Source: an uncultured bacterium (GTDB lineage: Bacteria > Planctomycetota > Phycisphaerae > UBA1845). Taken from it: DNA of 29,674 nucleotides. The DNA is taken from NCBI GenBank assembly GCA_965364865.1, contig CBDTZI010000001.1:1-29674 (forward strand), read 5' to 3'. The position numbers were made by a program, and so were the translations under genes. Numbering within the stretch: position 1 is the first letter of the stretch; each line of letters opens with the position of its first letter. Below, in pieces: positions 2,967 to 29,674 of the stretch. The notes under the pieces were generated by a model, which did not search any database, had not been told where the DNA came from, and saw only the letters and a program-made list of their open reading frames with translations.

Positions 2967-4486
2967 TTGCCATGTCCGTGAATCAATTGGTTGAGGCTAT
3001 AAGTGCACAAATTGTAAGTAATGCGCGAGCCAATCGGTCAACGCAAGACACCGGCGGACAAGCCGTCAGTGGCACTTGGGGAGATAACAAAGTATCGCGT
3101 GCGGTTATTGATTCGCGAATCGTGCAAGAGGGCGATTTGTTTTTCGCCATCCGCGGCGAGAAATTTGATGGCCATGATTTTGTTCAAAGTGCGTTTGAAA
3201 AAGGTGCAGCCGTCTGTGTGGTGGATCGAAAATTTGTTGAATCGAATCCCACTGTTCGAGAATTGAACGTACTGCTTTTGGTTGTGGATGATACGGTCGA
3301 TGCGCTTGGGTGGTTGGGTGCGTATTATCGCAGCACAGTGATGTCTGCGGATACAACGGTCATCGCGGTGACCGGCAGCAACGGTAAAACGACTACCAAG
3401 CGGATGATCGATCATGTTCTGCGAGATTCATTTGTGGGCCGGGCGTCTGAAAAAAGTTTTAATAATCAATACGGCGTGCCGCTGACGCTTCTATCGTGTG
3501 AGGTCGATGATCAATATCTGATTGTGGAAATCGGCACCAACGCGCCGGGTGAAATTGCGACGTTGTCAAAAATGACTTCACCTGATATCGCGGTCATCAC
3601 ATCAATCGGCGAAGCCCACCTGGAAGGACTGGGTGATGTGGACGCGATCGTAAAAGAAAAACTCTCCCTGATAGATTACGTTCGTCCGGGTAGTGCCACG
3701 TTTGTCAATGTCGATCGAGAAGAGATGGCTGCGTTGGTCGAGGACAAAAAGTACAACAGCGAAAGAGAAAAAATAAACGTAAAAACTATCGGATTTTCTC
3801 AAAAGGCAGATTATTCAGTTAGCGTCGTGGAGTTATCGCTGGAAAAAACGGTTTTTTCACTTGAACATTACGGTCAATTTGAATTGCCTCTACCCGGTCT
3901 GCATCACGCCACCAACGCGGCCGCTGCTTTTTGTGTAGCGAATCATATGGGTATAAATCCGATTACAATCATTCGACGATTGGCTACGTTCTCGGCGGTG
4001 GATGGTCGATCACGCGTAATCGAGGTCGGCGGCGTGAAGCTGGTGGATGATACCTACAACGCCAACCCCGCTAGCGTTTCTGCGGCGGTGACTACGCTGG
4101 GTCAACTGAAATGTTCCAGGCGAATTTTTGTGCTGGGCGATATGTTTGAGCTGGGCGAACACTCACTCGAAATGCACAAAGAAGTGATCCAGCTCATGGT
4201 AGACGCTGAGATCGAAATCGTGGTCACCGTGGGCGAAATATCCTTCTCCGCAGTCAACCCCATAAAAAATAAATCGCACCGAACGAAAATTTTATCGTTT
4301 CAAAAACATCAAGATGCGAGTTCCGCGTTGGTGAAAATGTTGATCGAAGGTGATGTGGTGTGGCTCAAGGGATCGCGGGTCATGGCCTTGGAGCGAGTTG
4401 TGAATGAGGTGAGTGAACAACTGACATTATATTCCACCGTGATTGAAAGTGGGATCACAAGCCGTAAAAAAATTGTGGCTGGGTAA
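2963..4486 (+). CDS. murF: UDP-N-acetylmuramoyl-tripeptide--D-alanyl-D-alanine ligase
   Basis: DSR...FFAIRGEKFDGHDF, VTGSNGKTTTK, SFNNQYGVPLTL, EIGTN...GEI, GEAHLEG, DDTYNANPAS, LGDMFELG and LKGSR. Start placed at ATG 2963 because it overlaps the murE stop as ATGA (ORF track starts at 2927). Confidence 0.95.
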   Translation: MIAMSVNQLVEAISAQIVSNARANRSTQDTGGQAVSGTWGDNKVSRAVIDSRIVQEGDLFFAIRGEKFDGHDFVQSAFEKGAAVCVVDRKFVESNPTVRELNVLLLVVDDTVDALGWLGAYYRSTVMSADTTVIAVTGSNGKTTTKRMIDHVLRDSFVGRASEKSFNNQYGVPLTLLSCEVDDQYLIVEIGTNAPGEIATLSKMTSPDIAVITSIGEAHLEGLGDVDAIVKEKLSLIDYVRPGSATFVNVDREEMAALVEDKKYNSEREKINVKTIGFSQKADYSVSVVELSLEKTVFSLEHYGQFELPLPGLHHATNAAAAFCVANHMGINPITIIRRLATFSAVDGRSRVIEVGGVKLVDDTYNANPASVSAAVTTLGQLKCSRRIFVLGDMFELGEHSLEMHKEVIQLMVDAEIEIVVTVGEISFSAVNPIKNKSHRTKILSFQKHQDASSALVKMLIEGDVVWLKGSRVMALERVVNEVSEQLTLYSTVIESGITSRKKIVAG

Positions 4487-4508
4487 TATTTTATAGGCGA
4501 AACCAAGC

Positions 4509-5657
4509 GTGTTATATCATCTGTTGGAACAATTTTTTGAAGGTCGTCATTACGCGTATGAAAATACGCTGTTCCGCGGTGCGTGTGCGGCGCTGTTTTG
4601 TTTCCTGCTGATTCTCGTGGGGCTTCCTCGGTTGATTCGCGTATTGATCAAACGCAAAATGGGCGATCGGCCCGAGTTTGATCACGCTTCGTTGAACGAG
4701 TTAACCCGCGACAAAAACAATGTACCCACCATGGGCGGGATTTTGATCATCGTAGCCATCGCTGCGGCGATTCTGCTGCTCTCGGATTTAACCAATTTTT
4801 ATATTCATATGTCTTTGCTCTGTTTGTGTTGGCTTGGTGTGATGGGCATGGTGGATGACTGGCTGAAATTAACCGCAAAACGCCGAACCCAGTCACGCGA
4901 CGGGCTGAAAATGTATCAGAAGCTTCTTTTTCAGGTCGGACTCGGCGTAATTTTGGGATACTACATCTACCGGCACGGTCGAAGCAATTTCAACTACGCG
5001 GTGTTGAGTCCGCTGGTGGAGACGGGGACGATTCCGGCGTACAAAATTCTCGCGGTTCCTTTTTATAAGGCTGGCCTGATCCTCGGGCCGATCGCATTTA
5101 TGATCGTCACCGTGCTGGTGATGTCGGGCACGTCGAACGCGGTGAACCTGACCGATGGCATGGACGGCCTGGCTTCAGGTTGCGTGGCGATGTGTTCGTT
5201 GGTTTTTTTGATACTGACTTATATCGTGGGCACGCAGGACTTAGCTGCTAAGCTTTTGTTCACGCACATCCCGATGTCCGGTGAGCTGGTGATCGTGTGC
5301 GGTGCGATTCTCGGGTCGTGTCTCGGTTTTCTGTGGTATAACTGTCACCCGGCCAAGGTGTTTATGGGTGATACCGGATCGCTGCCATTGGGCGGATTGA
5401 TCGGGTTTGTCGCGGTGGTCACCCGGCAGGAGTTGATGTTGTTTATCGTAGGCGGTGTGTTTGTGATTGAGGCGGTTTCGGTGATCATGCAGGTGGGCTA
5501 TTTCAAATGGACCGGCGGGAAACGGTTTTTCCGCTGCGCACCCGTGCATCATCATTTTCATCTGAGTGGATGGAGTGAATCGCAGACCGTAGTACGGTTT
5601 TGGCTGCTCGCGGCGATGTTCGCGGCGTTTGCGTTCGCTACGATTAAATTACGATAA
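4509..5657 (+). CDS. mraY: Phospho-N-acetylmuramoyl-pentapeptide transferase
   Basis: Polytopic membrane protein with PTMGG, DDWLK, NAVNLTDGMDGL, FMGDTGS and APVHHHF motifs. GTG start. Confidence 0.97.
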   Translation: MLYHLLEQFFEGRHYAYENTLFRGACAALFCFLLILVGLPRLIRVLIKRKMGDRPEFDHASLNELTRDKNNVPTMGGILIIVAIAAAILLLSDLTNFYIHMSLLCLCWLGVMGMVDDWLKLTAKRRTQSRDGLKMYQKLLFQVGLGVILGYYIYRHGRSNFNYAVLSPLVETGTIPAYKILAVPFYKAGLILGPIAFMIVTVLVMSGTSNAVNLTDGMDGLASGCVAMCSLVFLILTYIVGTQDLAAKLLFTHIPMSGELVIVCGAILGSCLGFLWYNCHPAKVFMGDTGSLPLGGLIGFVAVVTRQELMLFIVGGVFVIEAVSVIMQVGYFKWTGGKRFFRCAPVHHHFHLSGWSESQTVVRFWLLAAMFAAFAFATIKLR

Positions 5658-17214: not shown

Positions 17215-18888
17215 CTACGCGGAGGGTCCGTGAGTTTTTTCGCTGTCGGCGAGTGTAACGTGGGAGGCCACGAGCTTGACATGAAAAGTAGTCCCTTCGC
17301 CGACCACACTCTCGACTACAATCTCACCGCCGAGTTCCGCGACAATTTTTTTCGCCGCAGCGAGTCCCAGTCCGGTGCCGCCCTGACCTTTGGAGGATTG
17401 GAAGGGATCGAAAATTTTATCGAGTTGGTCCTGCGAAATCCCCGGGCCGTTATCACCGATCGACATCATCACGATGCCGCCCGAGGCATCGTACTGGGTG
17501 GAAATAATGACTCGCCCACCCTCATCGGAAACCGCATCGATCGCATTGAGAACAATGTTGTGTGTAACCTGGTGTACGCCGTCGGGATCAATGGGAATCG
17601 CGGGGATTTCATCCAGCTCGGTTAAGATCATCACTCCGTGTTCGTCGGCCCGTTTTTGCGATAATGAAATTACATCTTCGATAATTTTGTTTAATTGAGC
17701 GGTTTCGATTCGAGGTTGCCGGTCTTTACTGAACGTGAGCATGTTTAAGGTTAGGAGGAAAATTCGATTGAGGTTGCGACTCATCAACTCCCAGCCAGAT
17801 TTCATCGAATCGAAATCTCTTTTTTTCATACCCAGCTCGACCACATCAGCGCCACCCTGCATTCCCTGTAAAATATTGCGGATGTAGTGAGATAAATAAG
17901 CGACGGTTTCACCCGCCGCAGCGAGACGTTCTGTGACGACGCGGGATTCCAACAGTTGTACATTTTCAACGGCCATGCCCGCTAATCTTCCTATCGCGAC
18001 TACAAGGCGAAGCTGTTCGGGGGTATAGGTGTGGTGCGACATGGAACAATCCAGATGAAAAATGGCCAGTATTTCTCCGCGCACCAGGATGGGAACACAA
18101 ATAATACTTTGCAGGCCGAGGCTGTGGATACTGTCCTGCTTGCTGTCGGCGGTAAAACGATTGTCCGTCATCGCATTTGCACACAGCAATCCTTCTTTGG
18201 TTTCCAACACATGATTGATGATTGTTTTTGAAGTTACGATTTTTTTACGTCGGCCTCTTTGTGGATTGCGAAAGCGTACGATTTGAGGCGTCAGCTCATC
18301 CAGTTCGTCATACCGACGCAACAGCAACATACGGTCGACCACCAGATGATCGAAAAGGGTGTCGGTGATTCGTTCCAACAGGGCGTCAACGCTCTCGATC
18401 GTGCCGAGGGTTTCGGCGACTTTGTAGACGACATTCCAGGCGGCGACGGCGTCCGCGGTTTCCGGTGCCTGGATGATTACGCTTTCTTCGGAGGCGTCAA
18501 TCGCAGTTAAAATCGAAGAACCGCCCGAGGGATTGGAGAGATCAAAATCAACATCAACCAAATCCTGCGCCATGGCGGCTGCGGTATAGGGTTGCACATG
18601 TTTTTCGGGATTAAAAACCAGTAGTGAACTTCCCACCTTGATCTGATCGCCCTGATTGAGCTTGGTTGGGCTTACGATGCGTTGTCCATTGAGAAAGGTT
18701 CCGTTCGAGCTGTTCAAATCGACCAAGAGCCAGGAACCATTGGAGGGTCGCACCTCGGCGTGCCTGCGCGACGCGCTGTTATCGGTCAGAGATATCTGTG
18801 CCGATACACGCCCAATGACGGAGGGTTCATTGGGGGTCTGGTATGTACGCCCTTTATCCGGGCCTTGTAATACAAATAAGGTGGGCAC
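17215..18888 (-). CDS. Cytoplasmic FHA-GAF sensor histidine kinase
   Basis: FHA (IGR...SRRHA...DLNSSNGTFLNG), GAF (SIICVPI...FHLD), H-box LSHYIRNILQG and HATPase NAIDA/DNGPGI/GTGLGL. No TM segment. GTG start with GGAG upstream. Confidence 0.92.
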   Translation of the reverse strand: MPTLFVLQGPDKGRTYQTPNEPSVIGRVSAQISLTDNSASRRHAEVRPSNGSWLLVDLNSSNGTFLNGQRIVSPTKLNQGDQIKVGSSLLVFNPEKHVQPYTAAAMAQDLVDVDFDLSNPSGGSSILTAIDASEESVIIQAPETADAVAAWNVVYKVAETLGTIESVDALLERITDTLFDHLVVDRMLLLRRYDELDELTPQIVRFRNPQRGRRKKIVTSKTIINHVLETKEGLLCANAMTDNRFTADSKQDSIHSLGLQSIICVPILVRGEILAIFHLDCSMSHHTYTPEQLRLVVAIGRLAGMAVENVQLLESRVVTERLAAAGETVAYLSHYIRNILQGMQGGADVVELGMKKRDFDSMKSGWELMSRNLNRIFLLTLNMLTFSKDRQPRIETAQLNKIIEDVISLSQKRADEHGVMILTELDEIPAIPIDPDGVHQVTHNIVLNAIDAVSDEGGRVIISTQYDASGGIVMMSIGDNGPGISQDQLDKIFDPFQSSKGQGGTGLGLAAAKKIVAELGGEIVVESVVGEGTTFHVKLVASHVTLADSEKTHGPSA

Positions 18889-19284
18889 CTTGCAGGCTCC
18901 ACGTCAAAAAAAAGTATCGTCAAATAAAAATGAATCACTCGGCGAAATTGATTTCCTCAGGGGGTTACGATGGCCCGAAAAAAAGACGATCGATTGACCC
19001 TTCTGAGAACGCCATTGATTTTAGTGATCGTAGATGAACATGTCAATCGAGGATTGAAGTGGTGATGTAGTGATATCGGACTGAGCGATCGCCTATAAGA
19101 GCTGCGGGATATCGTACACTACAAATGTAAGAGGGGTACGCAGTGAACCTGACGTTTAAGGGCAACACTTTATAGGCCGACAGATATGCAGCGGTCTTAA
19201 AGAAACATGTCAAGGGTGAAAACTGCGCTACCAAAATGACCTCGGCGAGCAACGCTGTGGGTATGCGCTTTTAGGATAATTGGT

Positions 19285-19797
19285 ATGGCTGAGCGAAGTA
19301 ATCCAACAGGATATCAAAAGCTTGTCGAGCAGACAACGCCGCCATTGCCGCCTCGGCGTACCGCAGAGGATGAACTGGATTCACTGATTAATGTTCTCAA
19401 ACGCAGAGAAGAGAACGGTTTGTCCGGGCATTCGATTCAGGATCCACTTCAATCGTTACGCGAAATGATGATCAATGAACTCGTACCCATCTTCGTGGAA
19501 ATTGTCGAGAAGTATTCCAAGTCGGGTATTTCCATGCAAATGGACGCTTCCAACTTTCTTGAAGGGGGGCGCGAAATCCGTTTTGAACTGGGAATTGGTG
19601 AATACCGATCTCACCTGCAGGGAACGATTACGGGTGAAGCGATCGCCTTTCATGAGACACGCTATTCACCGGACTTTCATGGAGAGTTGACCGCGGGTCC
19701 CATGATTCGACTTCGATATCTCAACGGAAAAACTTTCCGTGAATTTATTTGTGAACGTCTATCCACACTGATTCGCACCGCCACCCGTCGAAGATAA
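19285..19797 (+). CDS. Hypothetical soluble protein (170 aa)
   Basis: Longest ORF in the gap, with protein-like composition (helical N-terminus, beta-rich C-terminus). No family recognised. Confidence 0.7.
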   Translation: MAERSNPTGYQKLVEQTTPPLPPRRTAEDELDSLINVLKRREENGLSGHSIQDPLQSLREMMINELVPIFVEIVEKYSKSGISMQMDASNFLEGGREIRFELGIGEYRSHLQGTITGEAIAFHETRYSPDFHGELTAGPMIRLRYLNGKTFREFICERLSTLIRTATRRR

Positions 19798-19969
19798 TCC
19801 AACTTACAATTTGATTCGCAGCGTTTATGTTCAGCTGGTTCTCAACCCGTGTCCGTGAGTCGCGGCTGGGATTCTGAAATGCTCACCGGAATCCATCCTG
19901 ACGCTGCAACACACTGACGGACTCTCGTTGTATGGGGAGCTTTGATGTTCAAATGTCATTGTTGTTGGA
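19798..19969. ncRNA. Candidate structured RNA (long irregular hairpin), identity unknown
   Basis: Nested inverted repeats found by eye: 19798-803/19964-69, 19806-10/19958-62, 19843-46/19927-30, 19851-60/19913-22 (9 of 10 bp), 19862-66/19903-07 and 19869-74/19889-94. Confidence 0.3.
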
Positions 19970-19976
19970 ATACGAA

Positions 19977-21962
19977 CTAAGGAATGTAGCGTTTTCCCTG
20001 ATCGACATCTTTAAGCCGACCTTTTTGTATGTATTCCTGAACCTGCAGGCGAAATTGTTCCATGCCGGGAGGTTCCGAAAACGCGGCCTGGATGGACCAA
20101 CGGGGTTCTTGTGTTTCGCAGATGCGTTGTAAGAGTGGCTGCAAATCGTCAAAGGTCATCAGTTGCTGTCGAATGGGAAGGTGTTTCCACAGCCTGGCTT
20201 TGAACAGCGGCATGACGCGAGGCTCTTTCATGAAGGCATAAATTTCATCGCGTAAAATAATCTCCGGGGTTTCCATGTGACGACGCGTGTTGATATCGTT
20301 TTTGGTGTCGATCATCCAGATGTCATAACACTGCCGGGCTTTGATCATCGAAGTGACGGCTGCCTGTTTCTGGTTAAGAGAAAATTGTTTGAGCGAACGA
20401 CGCACAAAACTTCGGATAATCGCGCTGACCGCACGATAAGTCTGAAGCTGATTGATAATGTCAGCCATTACAAATTCGTCGAGCGTAATCAGATAAATAT
20501 CCTGCGTGCTGCCGTCGGGGTGTGGGTTTTTTTCGCGAAGCCAGGAATAGTATTGCGTGGCGAGCTGGACGTTTTGCTCACCCCCTTCCAGGTATAACAA
20601 TTCAATCCAGTTGTGCATGTTGGTGACCATGCCGTTGAGGAACTTCTTGCCCGGCGTGCCTTCGACGAATCGGGGATCCTCCCCAAATTGTTCCTTACCC
20701 AGTCGCAGATAGGTGTCATACAAATAAGGAATCAGTCGCGTGTCGGGAGTGAGTTCCAGATAAGACGAATAGGGATCATCGAAATCGGGATAAAACGTCA
20801 TCTGTCCTCTCATGATTAATTGTTGCAAAGAGAAAAAGACGAATCGGGCGGTGTTCATCTGGTCCGCTTCGTTGATGTTCGCGTACCCTTTGGCCTTTTC
20901 ATTTCCCATCGTTGACCAGTACAGAGAATGAGAGAAGGCATTCCGCCAGTCGAGCGGCCCGTATTGTTCCACCATCAACTTGTACATAAAATCAAGATCG
21001 AATCGGTGTTCTTCACGCAGAATTTTTGATCGAATGGTGGACAACAGTCGTTCCAACGTTTGCGCGACTTGTTCATCGGTAAAGATTTCCAATCTTCGTT
21101 GTAATAGAGAATCCGCTGTCGATTTTGTATTGGGATCGACCAGGTCTTCCATCTGAAGTTCAGGACGAATATGGCGGGCGACAAAATCCAACAGCGTTTC
21201 GTCTGTGTTCAGATCAACCTCGGCCAGGCGTTCCACCAGCATGGCCACTGGTCCTTCATCACGAATCAATTGATCCAGATCGCGCGGTGCGGCGACCATT
21301 TTGTGAAACCAATCGTAATACTCCTGATCGTTCAACACGATAGGGGGCGGTCCCAGGATGCGTTCCATCTCTACCGCCAGCACGCGTTTATAATTGAGGT
21401 GTTCGTCGTCCATGAACCCCCCGATCTTATTCCAATAAATCCAGGCGAGTTCTTTGTAGAGCGAAACGGATCGCGGATTGTATTGAATACCTTTATCTCG
21501 CAAAATTTTTATTCCGTTGGAGACCCATTTCCATCGCGCTTCGGGAGTATATTGTGACACCGAGATGTTGTAAGCCATGTTCCAAGCCGCGTAGGCCCAG
21601 ACTTTCGGAAAGCGGGGTGCGAGAGCACAGACGGTTTCGTGAAGCTGCAAGGCTTCGTAGGTTCTTCCTTCTTCCTTCAATCTTTCCGCGCGAATCGCCG
21701 CCCAGTCAATCGCCAGCGCACGAAACGTGCCCAGTTTTCCCATCAGGGCGATCCCCGGCGGTAATCCCTGAATCGTGTCCGGATCAATCACCAGTTGATG
21801 TTTTTTGCGTATATCGTTAATGGGTCGAATCAACAATCCCGCCAGGATAAAGGATAGAATCGTGATGGTGATCGCAATGATCTGGACGGTGGATTCTTTT
21901 CGCATGGCTTTTTGTCGGGCAGCCAGGTGTTCAGGTAGTTGATAGGAAATCGTTTCGGACAT
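19977..21962 (-). CDS. Membrane-anchored TPR-like helical protein associated with the ABC module
   Basis: One N-terminal TM segment, then LG.FRALAIDW..IRAERL.EEG...E......V..LAP.F..VW.Y.AWNMAYNIS...RW.WV..GI..L.D.G...NP....Y.ELAW helical repeats. Last gene of the operon. Confidence 0.7.
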   Translation of the reverse strand: MSETISYQLPEHLAARQKAMRKESTVQIIAITITILSFILAGLLIRPINDIRKKHQLVIDPDTIQGLPPGIALMGKLGTFRALAIDWAAIRAERLKEEGRTYEALQLHETVCALAPRFPKVWAYAAWNMAYNISVSQYTPEARWKWVSNGIKILRDKGIQYNPRSVSLYKELAWIYWNKIGGFMDDEHLNYKRVLAVEMERILGPPPIVLNDQEYYDWFHKMVAAPRDLDQLIRDEGPVAMLVERLAEVDLNTDETLLDFVARHIRPELQMEDLVDPNTKSTADSLLQRRLEIFTDEQVAQTLERLLSTIRSKILREEHRFDLDFMYKLMVEQYGPLDWRNAFSHSLYWSTMGNEKAKGYANINEADQMNTARFVFFSLQQLIMRGQMTFYPDFDDPYSSYLELTPDTRLIPYLYDTYLRLGKEQFGEDPRFVEGTPGKKFLNGMVTNMHNWIELLYLEGGEQNVQLATQYYSWLREKNPHPDGSTQDIYLITLDEFVMADIINQLQTYRAVSAIIRSFVRRSLKQFSLNQKQAAVTSMIKARQCYDIWMIDTKNDINTRRHMETPEIILRDEIYAFMKEPRVMPLFKARLWKHLPIRQQLMTFDDLQPLLQRICETQEPRWSIQAAFSEPPGMEQFRLQVQEYIQKGRLKDVDQGKRYIP

Positions 21963-21982
21963 GTTTTTTTTAATCGATCATC

Positions 21983-23389
21983 TTAGATCGAAACCTCCGC
22001 AACTTCTCGGCGATGAAAAAGCAGCATCGCCAATCCTAAAACGATGACTGTTTTGATCACCGCCAGATCAACGACACCTTGCAGCACCCACACCAGACTC
22101 ACGTTTCGACCGTTGACGAAAGATTCGACTGCGTCGTAACGGGCGAAGTCCGGAATAATCCAGTGTAACACTTGATAGAGCTGTGTAATGGAATGCATAA
22201 AAAATTCATTCGTAGAATCAAACATGCTGGAGTAATCACCGGATGAGAAATCGAGCGCTTCAGAAATAAACTGTCTGGTACCCGCGAGGATGTATATGGT
22301 GAACGAACCCAGGCAGGCGACCGGGAAAGAAAAAGCGGTAGCCATGAACAGGGCTACGGCGGCCAGGAAAATAAGCTTGCACCACATCAGGATCAACAAC
22401 CGAACAAAATTCCACTCAAACGAGCCGACGATGAATAACACTTCTACCCGGTCAGATTTTCTGAATTCAATGACATTGTTGTACTGCGGCTCGTCGGGGT
22501 GCGTGTTTTGATTGTAAAATCGAACCGTTAGTGTGTGGTCCGCAGCGACGGCATCAGACGGACACAGCACTGTATGAAACCGACCGACCATATGGCGCAT
22601 GGGTTCATCGTAGACCGGGGTGCCCTTGTAAGGATCACCGAAACGCCACAGTGAACGAAAAATTTCGTCCGGTGGATATTGGGTGACCTCTGCTTTGTAC
22701 CGGATTTGGATAAAATGACCCGGCGAGCGATCCACCAGCACATTTTCAAATTCAAACAGTCGCACATCCACCGGGCCGACGATGCGCCATCTCGCTTCGT
22801 ATTTGCTGGCTAGCCTTCTTTTTTCCTCCGCAGGTCGAAAGTCGAGGACATCATCGTATAATCCTTCTTCGACGTTGCGATCGAATTCTATTTCCGCATC
22901 ACGCATGAAGTTTGGAATTTTTACCGGCAGTGCATGGCGAGCGACTAAAATTTCATTGTTGAGTTGAAACTCGTCGTACCGCTCATCAATGGGCGGGTGA
23001 GTGTAGCGGATATAGTGAACCATGCTGTACATCGTAATGCCTGCGACCGTCACCAACGCCGCATTTAACAGTACAATCCCAAGCCACTTTCCGAGAATAA
23101 ACTGCCAACGTGAAATGGGTTTGGTGACCACCAGATAAATTTGTCGGTTGACCAGTTCGTCGCTGAGTGAACGGGACAGGAAAATGGTGAGCATCCCCAG
23201 TAACACGCCGGTAGCGGTTAATCCATACATTAAAAAACTCTGAACCGTCCCGGTCAGTGAGCTGTCACCGGATGTAGAGAAGGGCAGAGCCAATACCACG
23301 AAGCTGATCATCAGAATAAAAACCAGAGCGATTTTCATCCGAATCCCTTCGGCGATCATTTGTCGTGCCACAGCCCATGTTTTACTCAT
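21983..23389 (-). CDS. ABC-2-type transporter permease with large extracytoplasmic domain
   Basis: TM bundle, EL.NRQIYLVVTKPISRWQFILGK motif, a ~200-aa soluble loop, and C-terminal LFHRREV. ATGA overlap with the ATPase stop. Confidence 0.85.
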   Translation of the reverse strand: MSKTWAVARQMIAEGIRMKIALVFILMISFVVLALPFSTSGDSSLTGTVQSFLMYGLTATGVLLGMLTIFLSRSLSDELVNRQIYLVVTKPISRWQFILGKWLGIVLLNAALVTVAGITMYSMVHYIRYTHPPIDERYDEFQLNNEILVARHALPVKIPNFMRDAEIEFDRNVEEGLYDDVLDFRPAEEKRRLASKYEARWRIVGPVDVRLFEFENVLVDRSPGHFIQIRYKAEVTQYPPDEIFRSLWRFGDPYKGTPVYDEPMRHMVGRFHTVLCPSDAVAADHTLTVRFYNQNTHPDEPQYNNVIEFRKSDRVEVLFIVGSFEWNFVRLLILMWCKLIFLAAVALFMATAFSFPVACLGSFTIYILAGTRQFISEALDFSSGDYSSMFDSTNEFFMHSITQLYQVLHWIIPDFARYDAVESFVNGRNVSLVWVLQGVVDLAVIKTVIVLGLAMLLFHRREVAEVSI

Positions 23390-24645
23390 GACGTTGAATC
23401 ACTCTGCGAGGAATCCGGGTCAAGCTGGCTGTCGAGCAATCCATCGATTACACTTTGATCCGCCAACGGTGCCTGGCGAGGCGTGTCCTCATGGCTGGCG
23501 GGTGTATCCGTCGCAGTCTCCTGTGTGGCCGGGATTTCCTGGGGGGTATCCTTTTTATTCGTAGACAGCAAATCGTCAAGCACTTGGTGGTCAGGCTCGG
23601 GTTTTTGAATCGCGGCGGTCGATTTCAGCAAAGTGGGTTCGATGGTTTCTGCGCGGGGTTCGGTGCGTATTTCTGACGCGGACACCAACGATTCGACTAT
23701 CGTTTGTGATTCTGTGACCGCTGGGGCCTGCAGAAAATCGGGCATTTTTCCGCCCTGACGTGCCCCTGACGTTTGAATGTTCGCCGCTTGTGCCTCTTCC
23801 ACGATTCGCAGGAAAAAATCTTCCAGCTTGACGCGTGGATTGGAAACTTCCATGATATCTTTTTTTTCCAGACGTTGAATCACGTCACGAACCTGGCGGA
23901 TCGTGCCTTCGTTCAATTGAGGAACCGTAATCTGTGTTACGTTCCGTTCGCGGAGCAGTTCATCGATATCGCCCACCGCACGCTGCTGACCTCCGTATAG
24001 GATTGTGACCCGGTCGCATACGTCCTCGACGTCCGCCAGCATGTGACTGGAGAGGAGTATGGTTTTTCCTTTTTTTCCCAGGTTTTGAATCACGTCTTTG
24101 ATTTGACGCGCTCCGATGGGATCGAGGCCTGAAGTGGGCTCGTCGAGAATTAAAAATTCCGGGTCGTTGATCAACGCCTGAGCGAGTCCGAGTCTTCTAG
24201 CCATCCCCTTGCTATATTCACCAACGGGTCGTTTCGCCTCGTGGCGTAAACCCACCATATCCAGGAGCCGATCGATTCTATCTTTTCTGATCTTGGTGGG
24301 AATGCGAAATAATTTGCCGTAATAATCCAGTGTTTCATGGGCGACCAGGAATCGATAGAGGTACGACTCCTCAGGCAGGAAACCGATTCGTGATTTCACG
24401 AGCACGTCGGAAGGGGGTTGGCCAAATACGGAAATTCGACCACGGGTCGGGTAGAGCAATCCCAACAGCATTTTAATCGTGGTGGTTTTTCCTGATCCGT
24501 TCGGTCCGAGTAATCCAAACACTTCGCCCGCATGAATTTGCAGACTCAAATCCTTGACCGCTTCGACGCGCGGTCTGCGCCAGAAATCCTTAAACGTTTT
24601 ACAAAGACCGGCGGTCTGAACTACCGGGTGATTTTGATCCACCAT
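23386..24645 (-). CDS. ABC transporter ATP-binding protein with long C-terminal tail
   Basis: Walker A GPNGSGKTT, signature YSKGM, Walker B LILDEPTSGLD and H-loop SSHML. About 110 extra low-complexity C-terminal residues. Confidence 0.95.
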   Translation of the reverse strand: MVDQNHPVVQTAGLCKTFKDFWRRPRVEAVKDLSLQIHAGEVFGLLGPNGSGKTTTIKMLLGLLYPTRGRISVFGQPPSDVLVKSRIGFLPEESYLYRFLVAHETLDYYGKLFRIPTKIRKDRIDRLLDMVGLRHEAKRPVGEYSKGMARRLGLAQALINDPEFLILDEPTSGLDPIGARQIKDVIQNLGKKGKTILLSSHMLADVEDVCDRVTILYGGQQRAVGDIDELLRERNVTQITVPQLNEGTIRQVRDVIQRLEKKDIMEVSNPRVKLEDFFLRIVEEAQAANIQTSGARQGGKMPDFLQAPAVTESQTIVESLVSASEIRTEPRAETIEPTLLKSTAAIQKPEPDHQVLDDLLSTNKKDTPQEIPATQETATDTPASHEDTPRQAPLADQSVIDGLLDSQLDPDSSQSDSTS

Positions 24646-24702
24646 GATTTACGCCTAGAAGAAAAAAACTAAAAAATATCGAGCACGCCACCCATCGACC
24701 GT

Positions 24703-25992
24703 TTAATCGTATTCCCACCCCACGGGTACATAGCGTTCTTTCCGGAGCTTGGAGGGGTCGAATTTCTGTTCCTGCAATCGTCTTGCTTCCTCTACGCGGG
24801 TCGCTTCAGGATCTAGCGGGATGTTCAAACGAAAGGTGGCTAGCGATGGCCTGTACATTTTTGTGACGCCGCCATAGGAGAAGATATTTCGTTTGGTGTC
24901 CTCCCACAATCTGGCGATGAGCAGATGTGGATTCCGCTGGTACTCCGGCAACAACGTACGATACATTTCGACATCGCTTTGCATCAAGCCTACGATTTGT
25001 GACAAGTATGCACCAACATCCTTAATTGCCCGACCCGCCTCGCCTTCCACTCGATGGGTTAAGATTTGATCCACTTCCTGTTGAAGTTCATCGGTGGGTT
25101 CGTGATTGGCTTTGGCTAACTCGAGTTCATCCAACACCCTGAGCAGATCAACATAAGCGGCTCCCGCCGCTTCGTTGAGAATTTTTGTACGTTGTTGTTC
25201 TGCCTCACGGATTTTCTTTTGTTTTCGGTTTTCTGATTGTTGTGTGCTGTCGAACGCCACCCGTACCGTAATCGGCGGCGTGGGTTCGTGCATTTCGATT
25301 CGAGAAAGTGTAATTCCCGTTTTTAACGACGTGAGTTTTTCATTCACACGACGTTTCATTTCCTGTTGGACATAATCCACGCGTGTGCGAATCAACTCTT
25401 CCGCCGTCAGTTCGCTGGCGATCTTAATGCCTGCGTTTTCCACCAGTTTGAGAATCAGATTCTCAGCGGCCTCCACCTCTTTACCGATCACTTGTGAAAC
25501 GTATTGACTAACATCATCGATTTTGTAGATCGCTTTCCAGCGTATATGCACCAGTCCCGCATCCGAGGTCATCAACGCACCATCCAAAACAGGGTGTAAC
25601 CCTGTGGTGGGGCCGCGTGCGATAAAACTCAGTGGCTTGCCGATTTCGTTTCTACGACGCTTAAATGAGTGGCTGTCAATGGCCAGTTCGTTACTTTTGC
25701 GTGTGGGCAACGGAACGATTTCGTCGATCGGAAAAGGAAACGCCCAGACTAACCCCGCTTCGTGAGGGGGTTCGGGTTTGAGTTGACCCATGCGCAAGAC
25801 CAGCGCCTGTTCGTGGCTTTCAATTCTTCTGACATTGGAAAACAGATAGAGGATCACCAGGATACACATGATCCCTTTGAGGATGCGAAAACTGGCACGC
25901 AGTGCATCCGCCAGCGATTGATTAGCGGCGTCGAGCGGTGCTTCCGCCGTTTCCAAATTTCGATGAGTGTGTTGATCTTGATTTTCTGCCAT
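24703..25992 (-). CDS. SPFH (band 7) protein, HflK-like
   Basis: Single TM, EQALVLRMG...GLVWAFPFPID, LMTSDAGLVH, PP..V..AFD and an Ala/Glu coiled coil ending LLPEY..NP...ARLW.DT as in HflK. Confidence 0.85.
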   Translation of the reverse strand: MAENQDQHTHRNLETAEAPLDAANQSLADALRASFRILKGIMCILVILYLFSNVRRIESHEQALVLRMGQLKPEPPHEAGLVWAFPFPIDEIVPLPTRKSNELAIDSHSFKRRRNEIGKPLSFIARGPTTGLHPVLDGALMTSDAGLVHIRWKAIYKIDDVSQYVSQVIGKEVEAAENLILKLVENAGIKIASELTAEELIRTRVDYVQQEMKRRVNEKLTSLKTGITLSRIEMHEPTPPITVRVAFDSTQQSENRKQKKIREAEQQRTKILNEAAGAAYVDLLRVLDELELAKANHEPTDELQQEVDQILTHRVEGEAGRAIKDVGAYLSQIVGLMQSDVEMYRTLLPEYQRNPHLLIARLWEDTKRNIFSYGGVTKMYRPSLATFRLNIPLDPEATRVEEARRLQEQKFDPSKLRKERYVPVGWEYD

Positions 25993-25994
25993 CG

Positions 25995-26966
25995 TTAATC
26001 TGCTTTCGAAACCTGTTTGGGATCAGTCAATAATGTGCGAGGATCGATGCGATGGCTGGACGCGTCTTTGCTGGGAATCGCCCGACGTACATCTTCTTCA
26101 AATAAATTCCACGGCGACTGGTCCGAGGTCATAATCAGCGTGGTTCTGCGCCGGAGTGCTTCCTGCAGTGCGCGAAGCTCATCCAGAAAAATTCGCAGTT
26201 CGGGATGTTCATCAAATTCCTTGTAATAATCGCTGACCACCCATTGGGCTTCGGCTTCGATCTGTGCGACTTTTTCTCTGGCCGACGCCAAAATGCGTGC
26301 TTCCGACGCGGTGGCATCCGCGAGGATGTCGTTGGCCCGAGCGTCGCCTTCAGCCTGATAGCGAGCCGCCTTGGCTTGTTCGTGCGATTTCATACTGTCG
26401 AAGATGGCTGTGGTCACCGATTCGGGTAAGCCCAATTTACTGAGTCCAAAATCAACCACTTCAATACCGTATTCGTTGATCGCGTCACGAGCGACCGCGA
26501 CCTTGATCGTCTGTTCAATATCACGAATTTTTCGATCTTTCTGATTGGTCGAAATAAATTCCTTGAATTTTCGTTGGCCGATGACCGCCTGCATGTGTGA
26601 CACGATCGTGGTACGTAGTTTCTTTTCACCCTCGTCCACACCGCTGGGAAAATTCGTGTGAAATTTTCCCGGGTCCGTAATGCGCCAGAGCGCAAACGTG
26701 GTAAGGATCAGATTTTTTCCGTCGGTGGTGCGTGTTTCTTCGGTTTTGGTTTCCAATGTGCGAATACGTTTATCGTATTTGACATAGGTTTGAATGGGCG
26801 GGGGCCATTTGTATTTCAAGCCCGGCTCGGTGATCGCCTCTTTGTCCGGCTTGCCCCAGGTCTTCTTAATGGCGACCTCGGTAAAGCGGACTTGAAACGT
26901 ACACATGTAGAGCAGGAGTACGCCGGCGACGACAACCGCAGCCAATATAGTACCCAGATTTTTCAT
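25995..26966 (-). CDS. SPFH (band 7) protein, HflC-like
   Basis: N-terminal TM, TFQV..TEVAI...WGKP....EPGL.YKWP..IQ....YDKRI, T.DGKNL...FA.WRITDP..F, G.EVVDFG...LGLP, and a C-terminal coiled coil with F...R.L.AL. Confidence 0.88.
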   Translation of the reverse strand: MKNLGTILAAVVVAGVLLLYMCTFQVRFTEVAIKKTWGKPDKEAITEPGLKYKWPPPIQTYVKYDKRIRTLETKTEETRTTDGKNLILTTFALWRITDPGKFHTNFPSGVDEGEKKLRTTIVSHMQAVIGQRKFKEFISTNQKDRKIRDIEQTIKVAVARDAINEYGIEVVDFGLSKLGLPESVTTAIFDSMKSHEQAKAARYQAEGDARANDILADATASEARILASAREKVAQIEAEAQWVVSDYYKEFDEHPELRIFLDELRALQEALRRRTTLIMTSDQSPWNLFEEDVRRAIPSKDASSHRIDPRTLLTDPKQVSKAD

Positions 26967-26990
26967 GATCGATAGACTCCGTTTATGGAT

Positions 26991-29135
26991 TTACTGGCCT
27001 GGGTTTTTCTTCATTTCTGTATCCACGCCGTCACTTAATACCTGATCCAGACCGCCGATTTTGGCGGTTTCATATTCGATGATGACTTTGGATAAATCAC
27101 CCAATATAAGATACTTACGAATATCATCGAGGTCCTGGATGACTTCAAGATTTTTTCGTTGTTTATAAAGATTAGGAGCAGCTTTGTAAGCGACCAGCTC
27201 CGTCTTGAACACTCGCGCTTTGGTCGCGGCCTCAGAGATTTTCCGGCTGGCGCTGGCATGGGCAAACGCGATCATCGCCGCGGATTCACCACTCGCGCGG
27301 GGAATCCCTTTTTCTTCGTTGCCCAAAAACAAATCATCAATCCGCTGTTCCGCTTGGGTCAACGCTTCCGTATCTACTTTTTCCTGCGATTGCAATCGAT
27401 CCTTTTCGCGAATCGCTACGTCCAGGCTTTTGGCTCGGGCTTCGGTGCCCGCGATTTCAGTCAGGATTTTCCTGGCTTGACCCTCTGCGGCGTTGATGAT
27501 CGCGAGCATTTTTGTTTGCGAGGCGATGGCGCTTTGGAAGCTGGCGGCGACTTCGTTTTTCGCTGGAGGGTGGGCACCACGAATTCCCACAAAGACAATT
27601 TCAATGCCCACTTCCAATTTTTCCAGACGTTGTTGAATGGAGGATTTCAGCGCCCGATTAAAAGCGACGCGGCCCGGACCCATCAACTCGTCGATATCCA
27701 CGCCAGCTGCATAATCCGCGAGGTACTGATACGCGATCGATTCCAACAGTTTAATCGGATCAGTATAGTGATAGAGAAAGTGGTGGATATTGTTGATGCG
27801 GTATTCAATCGGGATGGACACCATTAACAAACTGACCGGATTACTGCGAGCGGTGTCGTCTTCGGAATCCGATTCAAGTTCGAGGGCGCGTTCGTCAGAA
27901 GATTTGGGAGACGCCACGAGCAGCATTAACTCCGCGACGAAGTCATCATGTTCTTCGGTCCAGATGATCGCTTCCTCGTGGCCGTGACCGTGTCCGTCCT
28001 CTTCATCATCCACGGGTTCACCGATTACCAACTCCGCAATCTGTGATACCGGGGCACGCCGAATGGTGTCGATCGGGAAAGGCCACTTCACATGAAAACC
28101 GGCTTCGAGTTTTTCACCGTCTTTTTGTACGAGTCGACCAAATCGTTCGACGACCGCCGCTTCGTTGGCGTCGATCACGACGAAACTGGATAACGAAAGG
28201 ACAATCATCGCGGTGACGACGATGATCGGAAATAACCATCGTTGTAACAATTGATAAAACCAGGTGGAGCTGACTTCAAACCCGAATTGATAGTTTATCG
28301 CTTCCGCGATCGATTTTGTGATGCTTCCCGGTTCCGACGTCAGGCCGAGCAGCCGACTATCGAAAGAGGGTCTGGACAAGATCTCGGATTGACGCGGGCG
28401 ATAAAAATCAAAGACGAAATTGGCGACCATCTCGAGACCCAGCACGACCATCAACACCCGCGTAAAGTAAGTCATCAGCGGTTCGACCCAATCAATCGTC
28501 GTCGACATCAACGCGACCGACAGGCCCAGGCAAATCAACGCGTTACCCGCCATGTAGGTGGCGCCTGCGTGAAGCAATCGCCAGTCGCGAAGTTGCGACA
28601 GTGCCATGGCGTATCTCGCGTAAAGAAAACAGATAAATCCGATCCCCACGATGAACCACATCATCATGGTTGGGTTTTGTGTCCGTGCCATGCCGCCATG
28701 TTGAATCGTTTTGAAGGTGTCTTCCATTGCCCAGCCCCATCCGACGAAGTGGCCGGCCAGAAGAATGAGGGCGACGATAATCGTGGTCGATGGCAGCATC
28801 CAGCGGATCATCCAACGGAGACGATTTTGCTCAAGCAGGATGGCTTCGTCCTCCACATCAAAGATGGCGGTGGTCGTGCCGGATTCTCTGGCATGAACCA
28901 GTTCGACCGATTCCATTTGCTCAGCGCGTACGCGTCGCACCTGCTTGAACACCAGAAAGAGAATGATCCAGATGGGGATACCCGCGAACATAAATCTGGA
29001 GGCCGTCTGGATCGCGGGTGATTCCGCCCAGATCGAAATTCCCAGAAGAGTAGCGTATGAGGCCAGCTGCAGGAGAAAGCCCAACGCCGCTACATGCTGG
29101 GCTCGTCTGTCACTAAGAGTCGTGGTTTCTGCCAT
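26991..29135 (-). CDS. Polytopic membrane domain fused to HflK-like SPFH domain
   Basis: About 6 extra TM segments in the first ~300 aa, then the usual anchor, EAAVVERFG...GFH.KWPFPID, HPP....VA.SFQ and YKAAP..Y..R..LE motifs. Confidence 0.85.
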   Translation of the reverse strand: MAETTTLSDRRAQHVAALGFLLQLASYATLLGISIWAESPAIQTASRFMFAGIPIWIILFLVFKQVRRVRAEQMESVELVHARESGTTTAIFDVEDEAILLEQNRLRWMIRWMLPSTTIIVALILLAGHFVGWGWAMEDTFKTIQHGGMARTQNPTMMMWFIVGIGFICFLYARYAMALSQLRDWRLLHAGATYMAGNALICLGLSVALMSTTIDWVEPLMTYFTRVLMVVLGLEMVANFVFDFYRPRQSEILSRPSFDSRLLGLTSEPGSITKSIAEAINYQFGFEVSSTWFYQLLQRWLFPIIVVTAMIVLSLSSFVVIDANEAAVVERFGRLVQKDGEKLEAGFHVKWPFPIDTIRRAPVSQIAELVIGEPVDDEEDGHGHGHEEAIIWTEEHDDFVAELMLLVASPKSSDERALELESDSEDDTARSNPVSLLMVSIPIEYRINNIHHFLYHYTDPIKLLESIAYQYLADYAAGVDIDELMGPGRVAFNRALKSSIQQRLEKLEVGIEIVFVGIRGAHPPAKNEVAASFQSAIASQTKMLAIINAAEGQARKILTEIAGTEARAKSLDVAIREKDRLQSQEKVDTEALTQAEQRIDDLFLGNEEKGIPRASGESAAMIAFAHASASRKISEAATKARVFKTELVAYKAAPNLYKQRKNLEVIQDLDDIRKYLILGDLSKVIIEYETAKIGGLDQVLSDGVDTEMKKNPGQ

Positions 29136-29174
29136 ATTGTTAATCTTTACAGGTTTCTGTTATGCGCATTGAAC

Positions 29175-29189
29175 CTGACTTCAAGTCAG
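29175..29189. promoter_or_regulatory. Palindrome in divergent promoter region, candidate operator
   Basis: CTGACTT-C-AAGTCAG (perfect 7-bp arms), 39 nt upstream of the SPFH operon start. Confidence 0.4.
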
Positions 29190-29192
29190 ATC

Positions 29193-29210
29193 GTATCCAA
29201 GGGTATCCAA
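29193..29210. repeat. Direct repeat with 10-bp period
   Basis: GTATCCAA-GG-GTATCCAA. Confidence 0.5.
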
Positions 29211-29375
29211 AGCAGCTGCGGGGCTCACCTTGCTGTTCGATCGCGGCAGCTTACAATAAACGAATTCCAGTGCCAATATGTTGCTATTTACGGATGCAGT
29301 GGCAGACAAGTTCGCTCATACGAACGCCAAAATCGATGATTAGTCATTCTAACCGGAATCGGTGACCGCAAAAAG

Positions 29376-29674
29376 ATGTTTCAACGCTTCTATACCCTAT
29401 CACAAAATACGTTTGTCGAAACGATTCGCCAGCCGATTTACGGCGTGATTTTGCTGGCGACCGCAATCCTCATGGTTCTCAACGTGTCGCTGGCGGGGTT
29501 TACCCTGGACGACGACAACAAGCTCCTGCTGGACCTGGGACTTTCTACGCTCCTGCTCAGCGGTTTGTTCTTGTCCACATTCAGTGCCGCTGGGGTGTTG
29601 AGTCGGGAAATCGAAAACAAGACCGTGTTAACGGTCATTTCCAAGCCGGTCAGCCGCACCTTGTTCATTTTGGG
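29376..29674 (+). CDS. Second ABC-2-type permease, 3'-truncated by window edge (absent from the ORF track)
   Basis: My translation from ATG 29376 is open to the edge: MFQRFYTLSQNTFVETIRQPIYGVILL...DLGLSTLLLSGLFL...LSREIENKTVLTVISKPVSRTLFILG. It carries the same E..N......KP.SR..FILG motif as 21983-23389. Confidence 0.85.
   Translation, partial: MFQRFYTLSQNTFVETIRQPIYGVILLATAILMVLNVSLAGFTLDDDNKLLLDLGLSTLLLSGLFLSTFSAAGVLSREIENKTVLTVISKPVSRTLFIL

Follow-up and report, generated by a model that had tools for sequence, protein, structure and literature searches.

Three SPFH paralogues encoded among the genes of an ABC-2 transporter in Planctomycetota: a candidate transport module possibly linked to transition metals

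SPFH proteins, among them HflK/C, prohibitin, flotillin, stomatin and erlin, build membrane cages that have been resolved by cryo-electron microscopy (cryo-EM), and FtsH is, to our knowledge, the only defined client of the bacterial cages. Here we describe a gene cluster from an uncultured planctomycete of the class Phycisphaerae in which three SPFH genes (S1, S2 and S3, together the trio) are found with the genes of a transporter of the ATP-binding cassette (ABC) class and ABC-2 type (ABC, PERM and PERM2) and of an anchored protein, X. The cluster occupies positions 19,977 to 29,674 of GenBank contig CBDTZI010000001.1 (assembly GCA_965364865.1), whose full 29,674 nucleotides (nt) were analyzed and are called the window below. 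We propose, as a tentative reading that falls a little short of an even chance, that it encodes one SPFH-scaffolded transport module of two units, probably involved in transition-metal handling. Functional coupling of the trio and the transporter, taken alone, is likelier than this full statement.

Among the closest described systems is the HflK/HflC–FtsH complex of Escherichia coli (PDB 7VHP, 7WI3, 9CZ1/9CZ2 and 9PAW; PMC12048511). S2 resembles HflC, while S1 and S3 resemble HflK; all share the anchor helix and the predicted periplasmic SPFH domain, and the different paralogues are encoded side by side, as expected of a hetero-oligomeric ring. The planctomycete cluster differs in encoding three paralogues in the order K'-C-K'' instead of two and in the extra six-helix domain of S1. 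It also differs in context: its neighbours are transporters, and no hfq-hflX context is present at the cluster, where no search was aimed at hflX.

Another is NosDFY(L), a copper-handling ABC system for the maturation of nitrous oxide reductase (PDB 7O0Y, 7QBA and 7ZNQ). NosY is the nearest structural relative of the membrane part of PERM, and both systems combine an ABC-2 transporter with a periplasmic partner. However, two different permeases are encoded here in place of a NosY homodimer, PERM carries an insert, X is an anchored helical solenoid and not a beta-helix like NosD, and neither NosL nor NosZ is found among the recurrent neighbours. In general outline, PilGHI of Myxococcus and Xap of Geobacter combine an ABC-2-type ATPase and a permease with an accessory protein, as the cluster does; no pilus or polysaccharide-synthesis genes occur among its recurrent neighbours. 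Scores against GldAFG fall below the family cutoffs (186 against 402.6 for GldA, 22 against 288.5 for GldF), and no GldG-like gene is present.

A further described relative is the hmtA locus of Pseudomonas aeruginosa. PA2439 (HflK family), PA2438 (HflC), PA2437 (HflC family) and PA2435 (HmtA, a P-type ATPase that reportedly imports zinc and copper) are 5.6- to 14.4-fold upregulated in a zinc-starved znuA mutant (PMC4542158, Table 2). In a gel-shift assay, Zur binds the promoter of PA2439 (PMC8531726). A single operon, PaFlo5-7, comprises the three SPFH genes; their triple deletion has only mild phenotypes, and the paper describing it mentions neither zinc limitation nor HmtA (PMC13086221). Both the zinc/Zur regulation and the mild deletion phenotypes are known for Pseudomonas only.

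The cluster and the identity of its SPFH trio

The window corresponds to the entire contig C1 in the assembly of a marine metagenome-assembled genome (MAG) of 3.59 Mb in 564 contigs, 88% complete, which its closest named relatives place in the Phycisphaerae. The sequencing runs that contain it are marine and sediment DNA metagenomes, with no RNA run among them. The features of the cluster, with protein lengths in amino acids (aa), are as follows.

26991-29135, minus strand: S1, 714 aa, HflK-like SPFH protein with an extra N-terminal six-helix membrane domain
25995-26966, minus strand: S2, 323 aa, HflC-like SPFH protein with one N-terminal anchor helix
24703-25992, minus strand: S3, 429 aa, HflK-like SPFH protein with a single anchor helix at about aa 33-51
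23386-24645, minus strand: ABC, 419 aa, ATP-binding subunit of the DrrA/GldA/NodI type with a low-complexity tail
21983-23389, minus strand: PERM, 468 aa, ABC-2 permease with six membrane helices and a periplasmic beta-sandwich insert
19977-21962, minus strand: X, 661 aa, all-helical TPR-like solenoid in the periplasm, preceded by a single N-terminal membrane helix
29376-29674, plus strand: PERM2, second ABC-2 permease, divergent; the open reading frame (ORF) at 29376-29672 holds its first 99 codons, and the contig end cuts it
29230-29276, no strand assigned: PERM2/S1 intergenic element, TTGCTG-N16-TACAAT-N13-TGCCAA

A first-pass annotation of this DNA had described six co-directional minus-strand genes with gaps of 24, 2, 57, -4 and 20 nt, and recomputation from the ORF coordinates returns identical values. 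Its assignments (a transmembrane-fused HflK-like protein, an HflC-like protein, a second HflK-like protein, an ABC ATPase, a permease and an anchored TPR-like protein) agree with the family matches and with the predicted topology and folds. The divergent second permease that it had noted is the plus-strand ORF at 29376-29672, which shows a weak PF01061 match and shares 82% identity with the 325-aa ABC-2 permease at L031:11151-12128 in a relative, itself above the PF12679 (ABC2_membrane_2) cutoff at 31.4. Residues 96-325 of PERM2 resume at C185:3-692 of the same assembly, and the protein is a paralogue of PERM without the beta-sandwich insert. As the annotation had stated, ftsH is not in the window; the assembly yielded a single FtsH gene, located on a different contig. 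The annotation likewise saw no hflX or NfeD gene in the window, genes at which no search was aimed here.

All three trio members match Band_7/SPFH (E 6.5e-14 for S1, 8e-29 for S2 and 4e-21 for S3). Against the HflK and HflC equivalogs (TIGR01933/TIGR01932), S1 and S3 reach 100.9 and 109.9 bits with the hflK profile, whose cutoff is 159.4, and S2 reaches 118 bits with the hflC profile, below its cutoff of 134.4. The closest solved relatives are HflK for S1 and S3 (E 6e-13 for S3) and E. coli HflC for S2 (E 2e-22). S1 is built from an extra domain at aa 1-250 (nt 28386-29135), an anchor helix at aa 303-321 and an SPFH domain at aa 320-554. About six extra membrane helices precede the anchor helix, making about seven in all. 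The positive-inside rule predicts a periplasmic location for each SPFH domain of the trio as well as for X and the insert of PERM, in keeping with an HflK/C-like arrangement.

In a maximum-likelihood tree, each trio member groups with its counterpart from a three-SPFH module of Burkholderiales, described below: S1 with PbK/BuK (98/97), S2 with PbC/BuC (87/66) and S3 with Pb3/Bu3 (89/84). All three fall apart from the HflK and HflC proteins from E. coli and Methylophaga, with few canonical sequences represented in the tree. Judged from this separate grouping, S1, S2 and S3 are old and distinct paralogues, and the trio does not appear to be canonical HflK/HflC.

The opposing explanation holds that S2 and S3, with S1, are ordinary HflK/HflC-type FtsH modulators, for which adjacency to ABC genes has no functional meaning for the transporter. 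It can appeal to the E. coli proteins as best solved relatives, to the single FtsH of the genome, to the presence of FtsH within 3 of 122 fetched loci, and to the other SPFH genes of the 88%-complete assembly, which are FloA-like or divergent, with no further HflK/HflC-like pair found. However, the trio scores under the curated hflK and hflC cutoffs, comprises three paralogues, one of them with seven membrane helices, forms clades separate from the canonical proteins, and is unlinked to FtsH in 119 of the 122 loci. Two complete Planctomycetota genomes have no match to S1, its SPFH domain included, while S1 closely tracks X (see below). We consider this explanation very unlikely.

Some further observations concern SPFH proteins more broadly. 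Contig C18 of the same genome encodes a 605-aa protein with a weak SPFH match beside a gene for a CDC48/FtsH-like AAA ATPase (L141:2088-3905 and 3911-5068, minus strand). On a Methylophaga thalassica plasmid (L162), a canonical-looking hflK-hflC pair likewise has a metal or ion context: genes for a MerR regulator and a heavy-metal-associated domain lie on one side of it and cation:proton antiporter genes on the other. A Pfam search with the C-terminal part of S1 returned no match.

Conserved gene order and nested co-occurrence

Related loci were gathered by genome search and from a genome collection, and their genes were mapped by tblastn, giving 121 distinct loci in Planctomycetota. The order S1-S2-S3-ABC-PERM-X is the same in 87 of the 121, most of the remainder being cut by contig ends, and PERM2 is present in 82 of the 87 complete six-gene clusters. 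This order is kept even at protein identities down to 25-35% and across many families and classes, including Phycisphaerae, Candidatus Kuenenia and MAGs labelled Pirellulales and Planctomycetales. Its recurrence indicates that the arrangement is not a product of chance. The suggestion of the first-pass annotation that similar clusters may recur in PVC genomes is borne out within Planctomycetota, and the loss of synteny between SPFH and ABC genes that it had named as fatal to its proposal was not seen in the neighbourhood survey, where the trio remains linked to the ABC genes in different classes of the phylum.

PERM2 is mostly divergent from S1 and in some loci is co-directional and directly upstream of it. 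The trio is located between PERM2 and ABC, that is, between the subunit genes of one transporter. In three loci without the trio (L049, L052 and L101), PERM2-ABC-PERM-X are contiguous, which places the trio within the transporter's own gene set.

Presence across genomes follows a nested pattern. X is detected in 40 of 41 genomes of the order. S1 is present in 52 of 301 sampled genomes of the phylum, 51 of which also encode X, and X or its N-terminal domain is more widely spread, with matches in 230 genomes. The cluster was not found in complete genomes of two other families. The trio and the ABC-2/X set thus form two units with nested co-occurrence, in samples that are small and made up of related, non-independent genomes.

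Such units could also be independent. On this alternative, the trio (with its P-type ATPase in the loci that have one) and ABC-2/X are co-transcribed and respond to the same condition without forming a physical complex. The ABC/X unit does occur without the trio, in L051 as well as in the three loci named above, a separation that would fit mere co-regulation of the two units. Two loci in genomes of about 9.4 Mb (L144, at G048:C1:912000-931000, and L145) have the order S1-S2-S3-ATPase-ABC; PERM and X were not found beside the cluster in either, and X is encoded elsewhere in both genomes. The proteobacterial trio module, moreover, has no ABC-2 or X genes. Complex prediction for PERM, X(1-205) and S1(1-325) gave 0.00, below the 0.34 mark, a result that provides no support for contact and speaks neither for nor against binding. 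However, the trio is inserted between the subunit genes of one transporter and not alongside them, the exact order persists in 87 loci at very low identity, 51 of the 52 genomes with S1 carry X, and the ABC ATPase gene stays with the trio in L144 and L145 though PERM and X lie elsewhere. Independence of the two units is, in our judgement, rather unlikely.

The 240-nt gap between S1 and PERM2 holds the intergenic element at 29230-29276. Among 78 divergent intergenic regions, 15 (those of the window and of 14 relatives) carry this element with identical spacing, and all its carriers have an S1 at least 36% identical to that of the window. As controls, the reverse complement yielded no hit and shuffled sequences averaged 0.04. 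The element can be read as a -35/-10 pair for PERM2 and, on the other strand, as TTGGCA-N17-TAAGCT for S1. We infer that it consists of two overlapping divergent sigma-70-like promoters, an arrangement that would place PERM2 and S1 under joint control. A promoter and terminator scan of 19200-29674 returned counts at the level of shuffled sequence and was uninformative on operon boundaries.

Other neighbours recur less widely. A 170-aa ORF without a family match (19285-19797, plus strand) is convergent with X, and beyond it lies a gene for an FHA-GAF-HisKA-HATPase sensor kinase (17215-18888, minus strand). Both adjoin the cluster in several relatives, of which those that can be placed belong to the window's own family. 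The kinase could be a local regulator of the cluster. Past PERM2, the next genes are ilvC and mgtE.

Relation to modules with a P-type metal ATPase

A tblastn search of plasmids with S1 recovers a four-gene module in Paraburkholderia sprentiae (pl1WSM5005) and Burkholderia ubonensis (pMSMB2035). Alongside an 'HflK' of 606 or 631 aa whose N-terminus is polytopic and an 'HflC', it encodes a third SPFH protein, and the trio is always followed by the gene of a cation P-type ATPase. The same four genes are found on a further Burkholderia contig (L163), beside a TonB-dependent receptor, ExbB/ExbD/TonB and a beta-carbonic anhydrase, and the Paraburkholderia module is near ZnuABC-like genes and a gene annotated 'GTP-binding protein'. 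The evidence suggests that the module is mobile and tied to metal uptake. On the conjugative plasmid pMSMB2035 (L149), it is flanked by IS5, IS110 and IS66.

By blastp and tree, S1, S2 and S3 are one-to-one orthologues of the members of this module. Both systems share the order polytopic HflK-like, HflC-like and third SPFH, and in 9 planctomycete loci the gene next to S3 encodes an ATPase of the same subtype. They differ in that the Burkholderiales module has no ABC-2 permeases, ABC ATPase or X, whereas the window cluster has no P-type ATPase. The Burkholderiales module matches the P. aeruginosa hmtA locus, PA2439-PA2435, by published annotation only; with the Paraburkholderia S1-like protein as query, the best 120 matches are all from Burkholderiales, with no Pseudomonas among them.

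One P1B ATPase subtype, whose members share 49-69% identity, is present in 24 distinct planctomycete loci. It lacks an HMA domain and has a CPC motif in the metal-binding helix and LHxxG/S...NSARL in the last helix. Its gene lies between S3 and ABC in 9 loci and just past PERM2 in 14. In the tree, the planctomycete subtype groups with the ATPase of the Burkholderiales module (97/94), apart from the CopA-like and SPC-type pumps of the window's own genome. An orthologue (56-59% identity) is encoded on another contig in all five high-quality genomes examined from the window's family. None above 40% identity was found in five of five genomes without the trio, two of which keep the ABC/X unit. In L144, the trio-ATPase-ABC cluster continues downstream with genes for a ZnuC-like ATPase and an ABC-3 metal permease; an IS605 OrfB/TnpB-like gene is also close by.

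The ABC transporter is probably neither the sole nor the oldest partner of the trio, whose orthologues belong to a module with a P-type metal ATPase. This bears on the SPFH-ABC coupling put forward in the first-pass annotation. The synteny and the position of the trio inside the transporter gene set support that coupling, which is probably not exclusive.

The extra domain of S1 provides a second possible tie to metals. Its family comprises 848 cluster representatives, and the majority of those listed measure 650-850 aa, a length indicating that the domain is usually fused to SPFH. Sub-threshold, colinear matches to Cation_efflux (CDF, PF01545) occur in 16 of 44 homologues of the S1 domain, the best at E 4.7e-6, and hhalign aligns the domain with CDF at a probability of 52% (E 1.4e-4) across helices 1-6. 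On these profile alignments, which stay below threshold, the domain looks like a degenerate CDF zinc transporter. Its likeness to CDF proteins of the YiiP, CzcD and ZnT type lies in the six membrane helices and the colinear profile alignment. It differs in being fused to SPFH, in having no metal-site motifs and in missing the cytoplasmic C-terminal domain, as the six helices of S1 lead through a 57-aa linker to the SPFH anchor helix. No canonical CDF gene (PF01545 at E <= 1e-20) was found in the window's own 88%-complete assembly; 7 of 10 relatives searched have one. A His/Asp-rich insert in the SPFH domain of S1 was considered as a metal site and rejected, being not conserved outside the window's family.

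Substrate of the transporter and the proposed module

The ABC protein matches ABC_tran at E 1e-31 and scores best against exporter families (DrrA, GldA and NodI), reaching 215 bits for drrA and 186 bits for GldA, each under its cutoff. It is 45-68% identical across the related loci. Its C-terminal third (23386-23750) is a low-complexity tail, some 120 aa in length, in which Pro, Thr, Glu and Gln are abundant, and the alignments of relatives often end before it. PERM shows weak ABC-2 matches (PF12679 at 22.4, against a gathering cutoff of 27.2). Its predicted model (pLDDT 87) has six membrane helices, and the membrane part aligns with NosY (7o0y_D) over 247 of 267 residues at Z 19.4 and 18% identity, ahead of CcmB, PmtCD and ABCG at Z 15.9. 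A beta-sandwich of about 170 aa, predicted to be periplasmic, is inserted between helices 3 and 4 (aa 150-320, nt 22430-22942); it has no Pfam match.

X matches no family in Pfam or NCBIfam. Its predicted model (pLDDT 86) is all helical, TPR-like and N-terminally anchored. Fold searches returned generic TPR/solenoid proteins and uncharacterized AlphaFold clusters only, and an atlas search was uninformative. X has 2476 homologues, and all source names shown read 'hypothetical protein'.

The main rival explanation is an envelope glycan or lipid exporter, in which X and the PERM insert would handle the exported polysaccharide, glycolipid or lipid in the periplasm and the trio would organize the membrane, the metal ATPase being incidental. 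PERM has the type V ABC-2 fold, with Wzm, TarG, KpsM, ABCA and ABCG among its structural relatives, and ABC has the exporter affinities noted above. The insert resembles carbohydrate-binding modules and a BcsB domain (Z 8-9), which hints at another substrate. The invariant residues of X and PERM are rich in W, N, R, K and Y and not in Cys or His; those of X are aromatic, Asn and Arg, as is typical of sugar or headgroup binding. In 13 loci of one clade (L033, L088-L091, L098, L104, L105, L110, L111 and L118-L120), X is followed on the same strand by a gene whose product, some 650 aa long, has a weak GH10-like domain. For the residues of X and PERM, the insert and this neighbour, a glycan or lipid substrate fits at least as well as a metal. 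However, NosY is the clear best structural match of PERM (Z 19.4 against 15.9), and the sandwich is a very common fold, for which Z 8-9 lies within the range of chance similarity. The exporter also leaves unexplained the orthology of the trio to a module whose sole non-SPFH member is a metal ATPase, the ATPase inside the operon in 9 loci, and the CDF-like domain of S1. We regard it as unlikely overall, though a serious competitor.

In the SPFH-scaffolded module that we propose, the first unit would be an ABC-2 transporter with two ATPase copies, the NosY-like PERM and PERM2, working with the anchored periplasmic X. The second would be a scaffold of S1, S2 and S3, assembling into an HflK/C-like hetero-oligomeric ring or arc. 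This ring or arc may fence, organize, gate or regulate a membrane patch of transporters rather than FtsH. In this lineage the patch would contain the ABC-2/X machine, and in many relatives a dedicated HmtA-type P-type ATPase as well. The module would serve to handle a transition metal, of which zinc is the probable one, in the periplasm and at the inner membrane. The physical association of the units, the cage geometry, the substrate and zinc-dependent regulation are features that we infer.

A more specific version goes further. Here, a three-subunit SPFH cage would enclose metal-transport machinery, namely the NosY-like ABC-2 transporter with its partner and, where present, the HmtA-type ATPase, in a fenced zinc/copper compartment, with the CDF-like domain of S1 recruiting transporters as an adaptor or sensor. 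We think it improbable in this complete form.

Several observations weigh against the metal-handling module, in addition to the glycan-like features of X and PERM, the transporters without a trio, the unsupportive complex prediction, the small co-occurrence samples and the annotation-level match to Pseudomonas. The window cluster has no P-type ATPase, and the best match to the subtype in the 88%-complete assembly is 36% identical. In Pfam searches the window's own S1 has no CDF match, residues 1-310 giving two insignificant matches only, and the homologues' CDF matches all stay below the Pfam cutoff, with an hhalign probability of just 52%. The CDF metal-site motifs, D/H-x3-D in helix 2 and H-x3-D in helix 5, are not kept at the aligned positions.

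The first-pass annotation knew of no functional description of such a cluster, and a literature search on SPFH proteins with ABC transporters in Planctomycetes and Kuenenia likewise yielded no account of the module. The subject here is an SPFH scaffold with transporters as conserved partners; new are the orthology of the trio to the proteobacterial module, the genome-wide co-occurrence of trio and ATPase subtype, and the conserved divergent promoter-like element. If the proposal is true, the trio should matter under zinc or copper limitation, and either the P-type ATPase or the ABC-2 transporter should be recovered with it on purification. A simpler orthologous version is available in genetically tractable Burkholderia and, by annotation, in Pseudomonas, where the metal link may explain the mild phenotypes of the PaFlo5-7 deletion. 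The current label 'protease modulator HflK/HflC' is probably misleading for the trio family. The module offers a second, genetically defined candidate client set, all transporters, conserved across the phylum, and bacterial SPFH cages may thus serve transporters and not just the FtsH protease.

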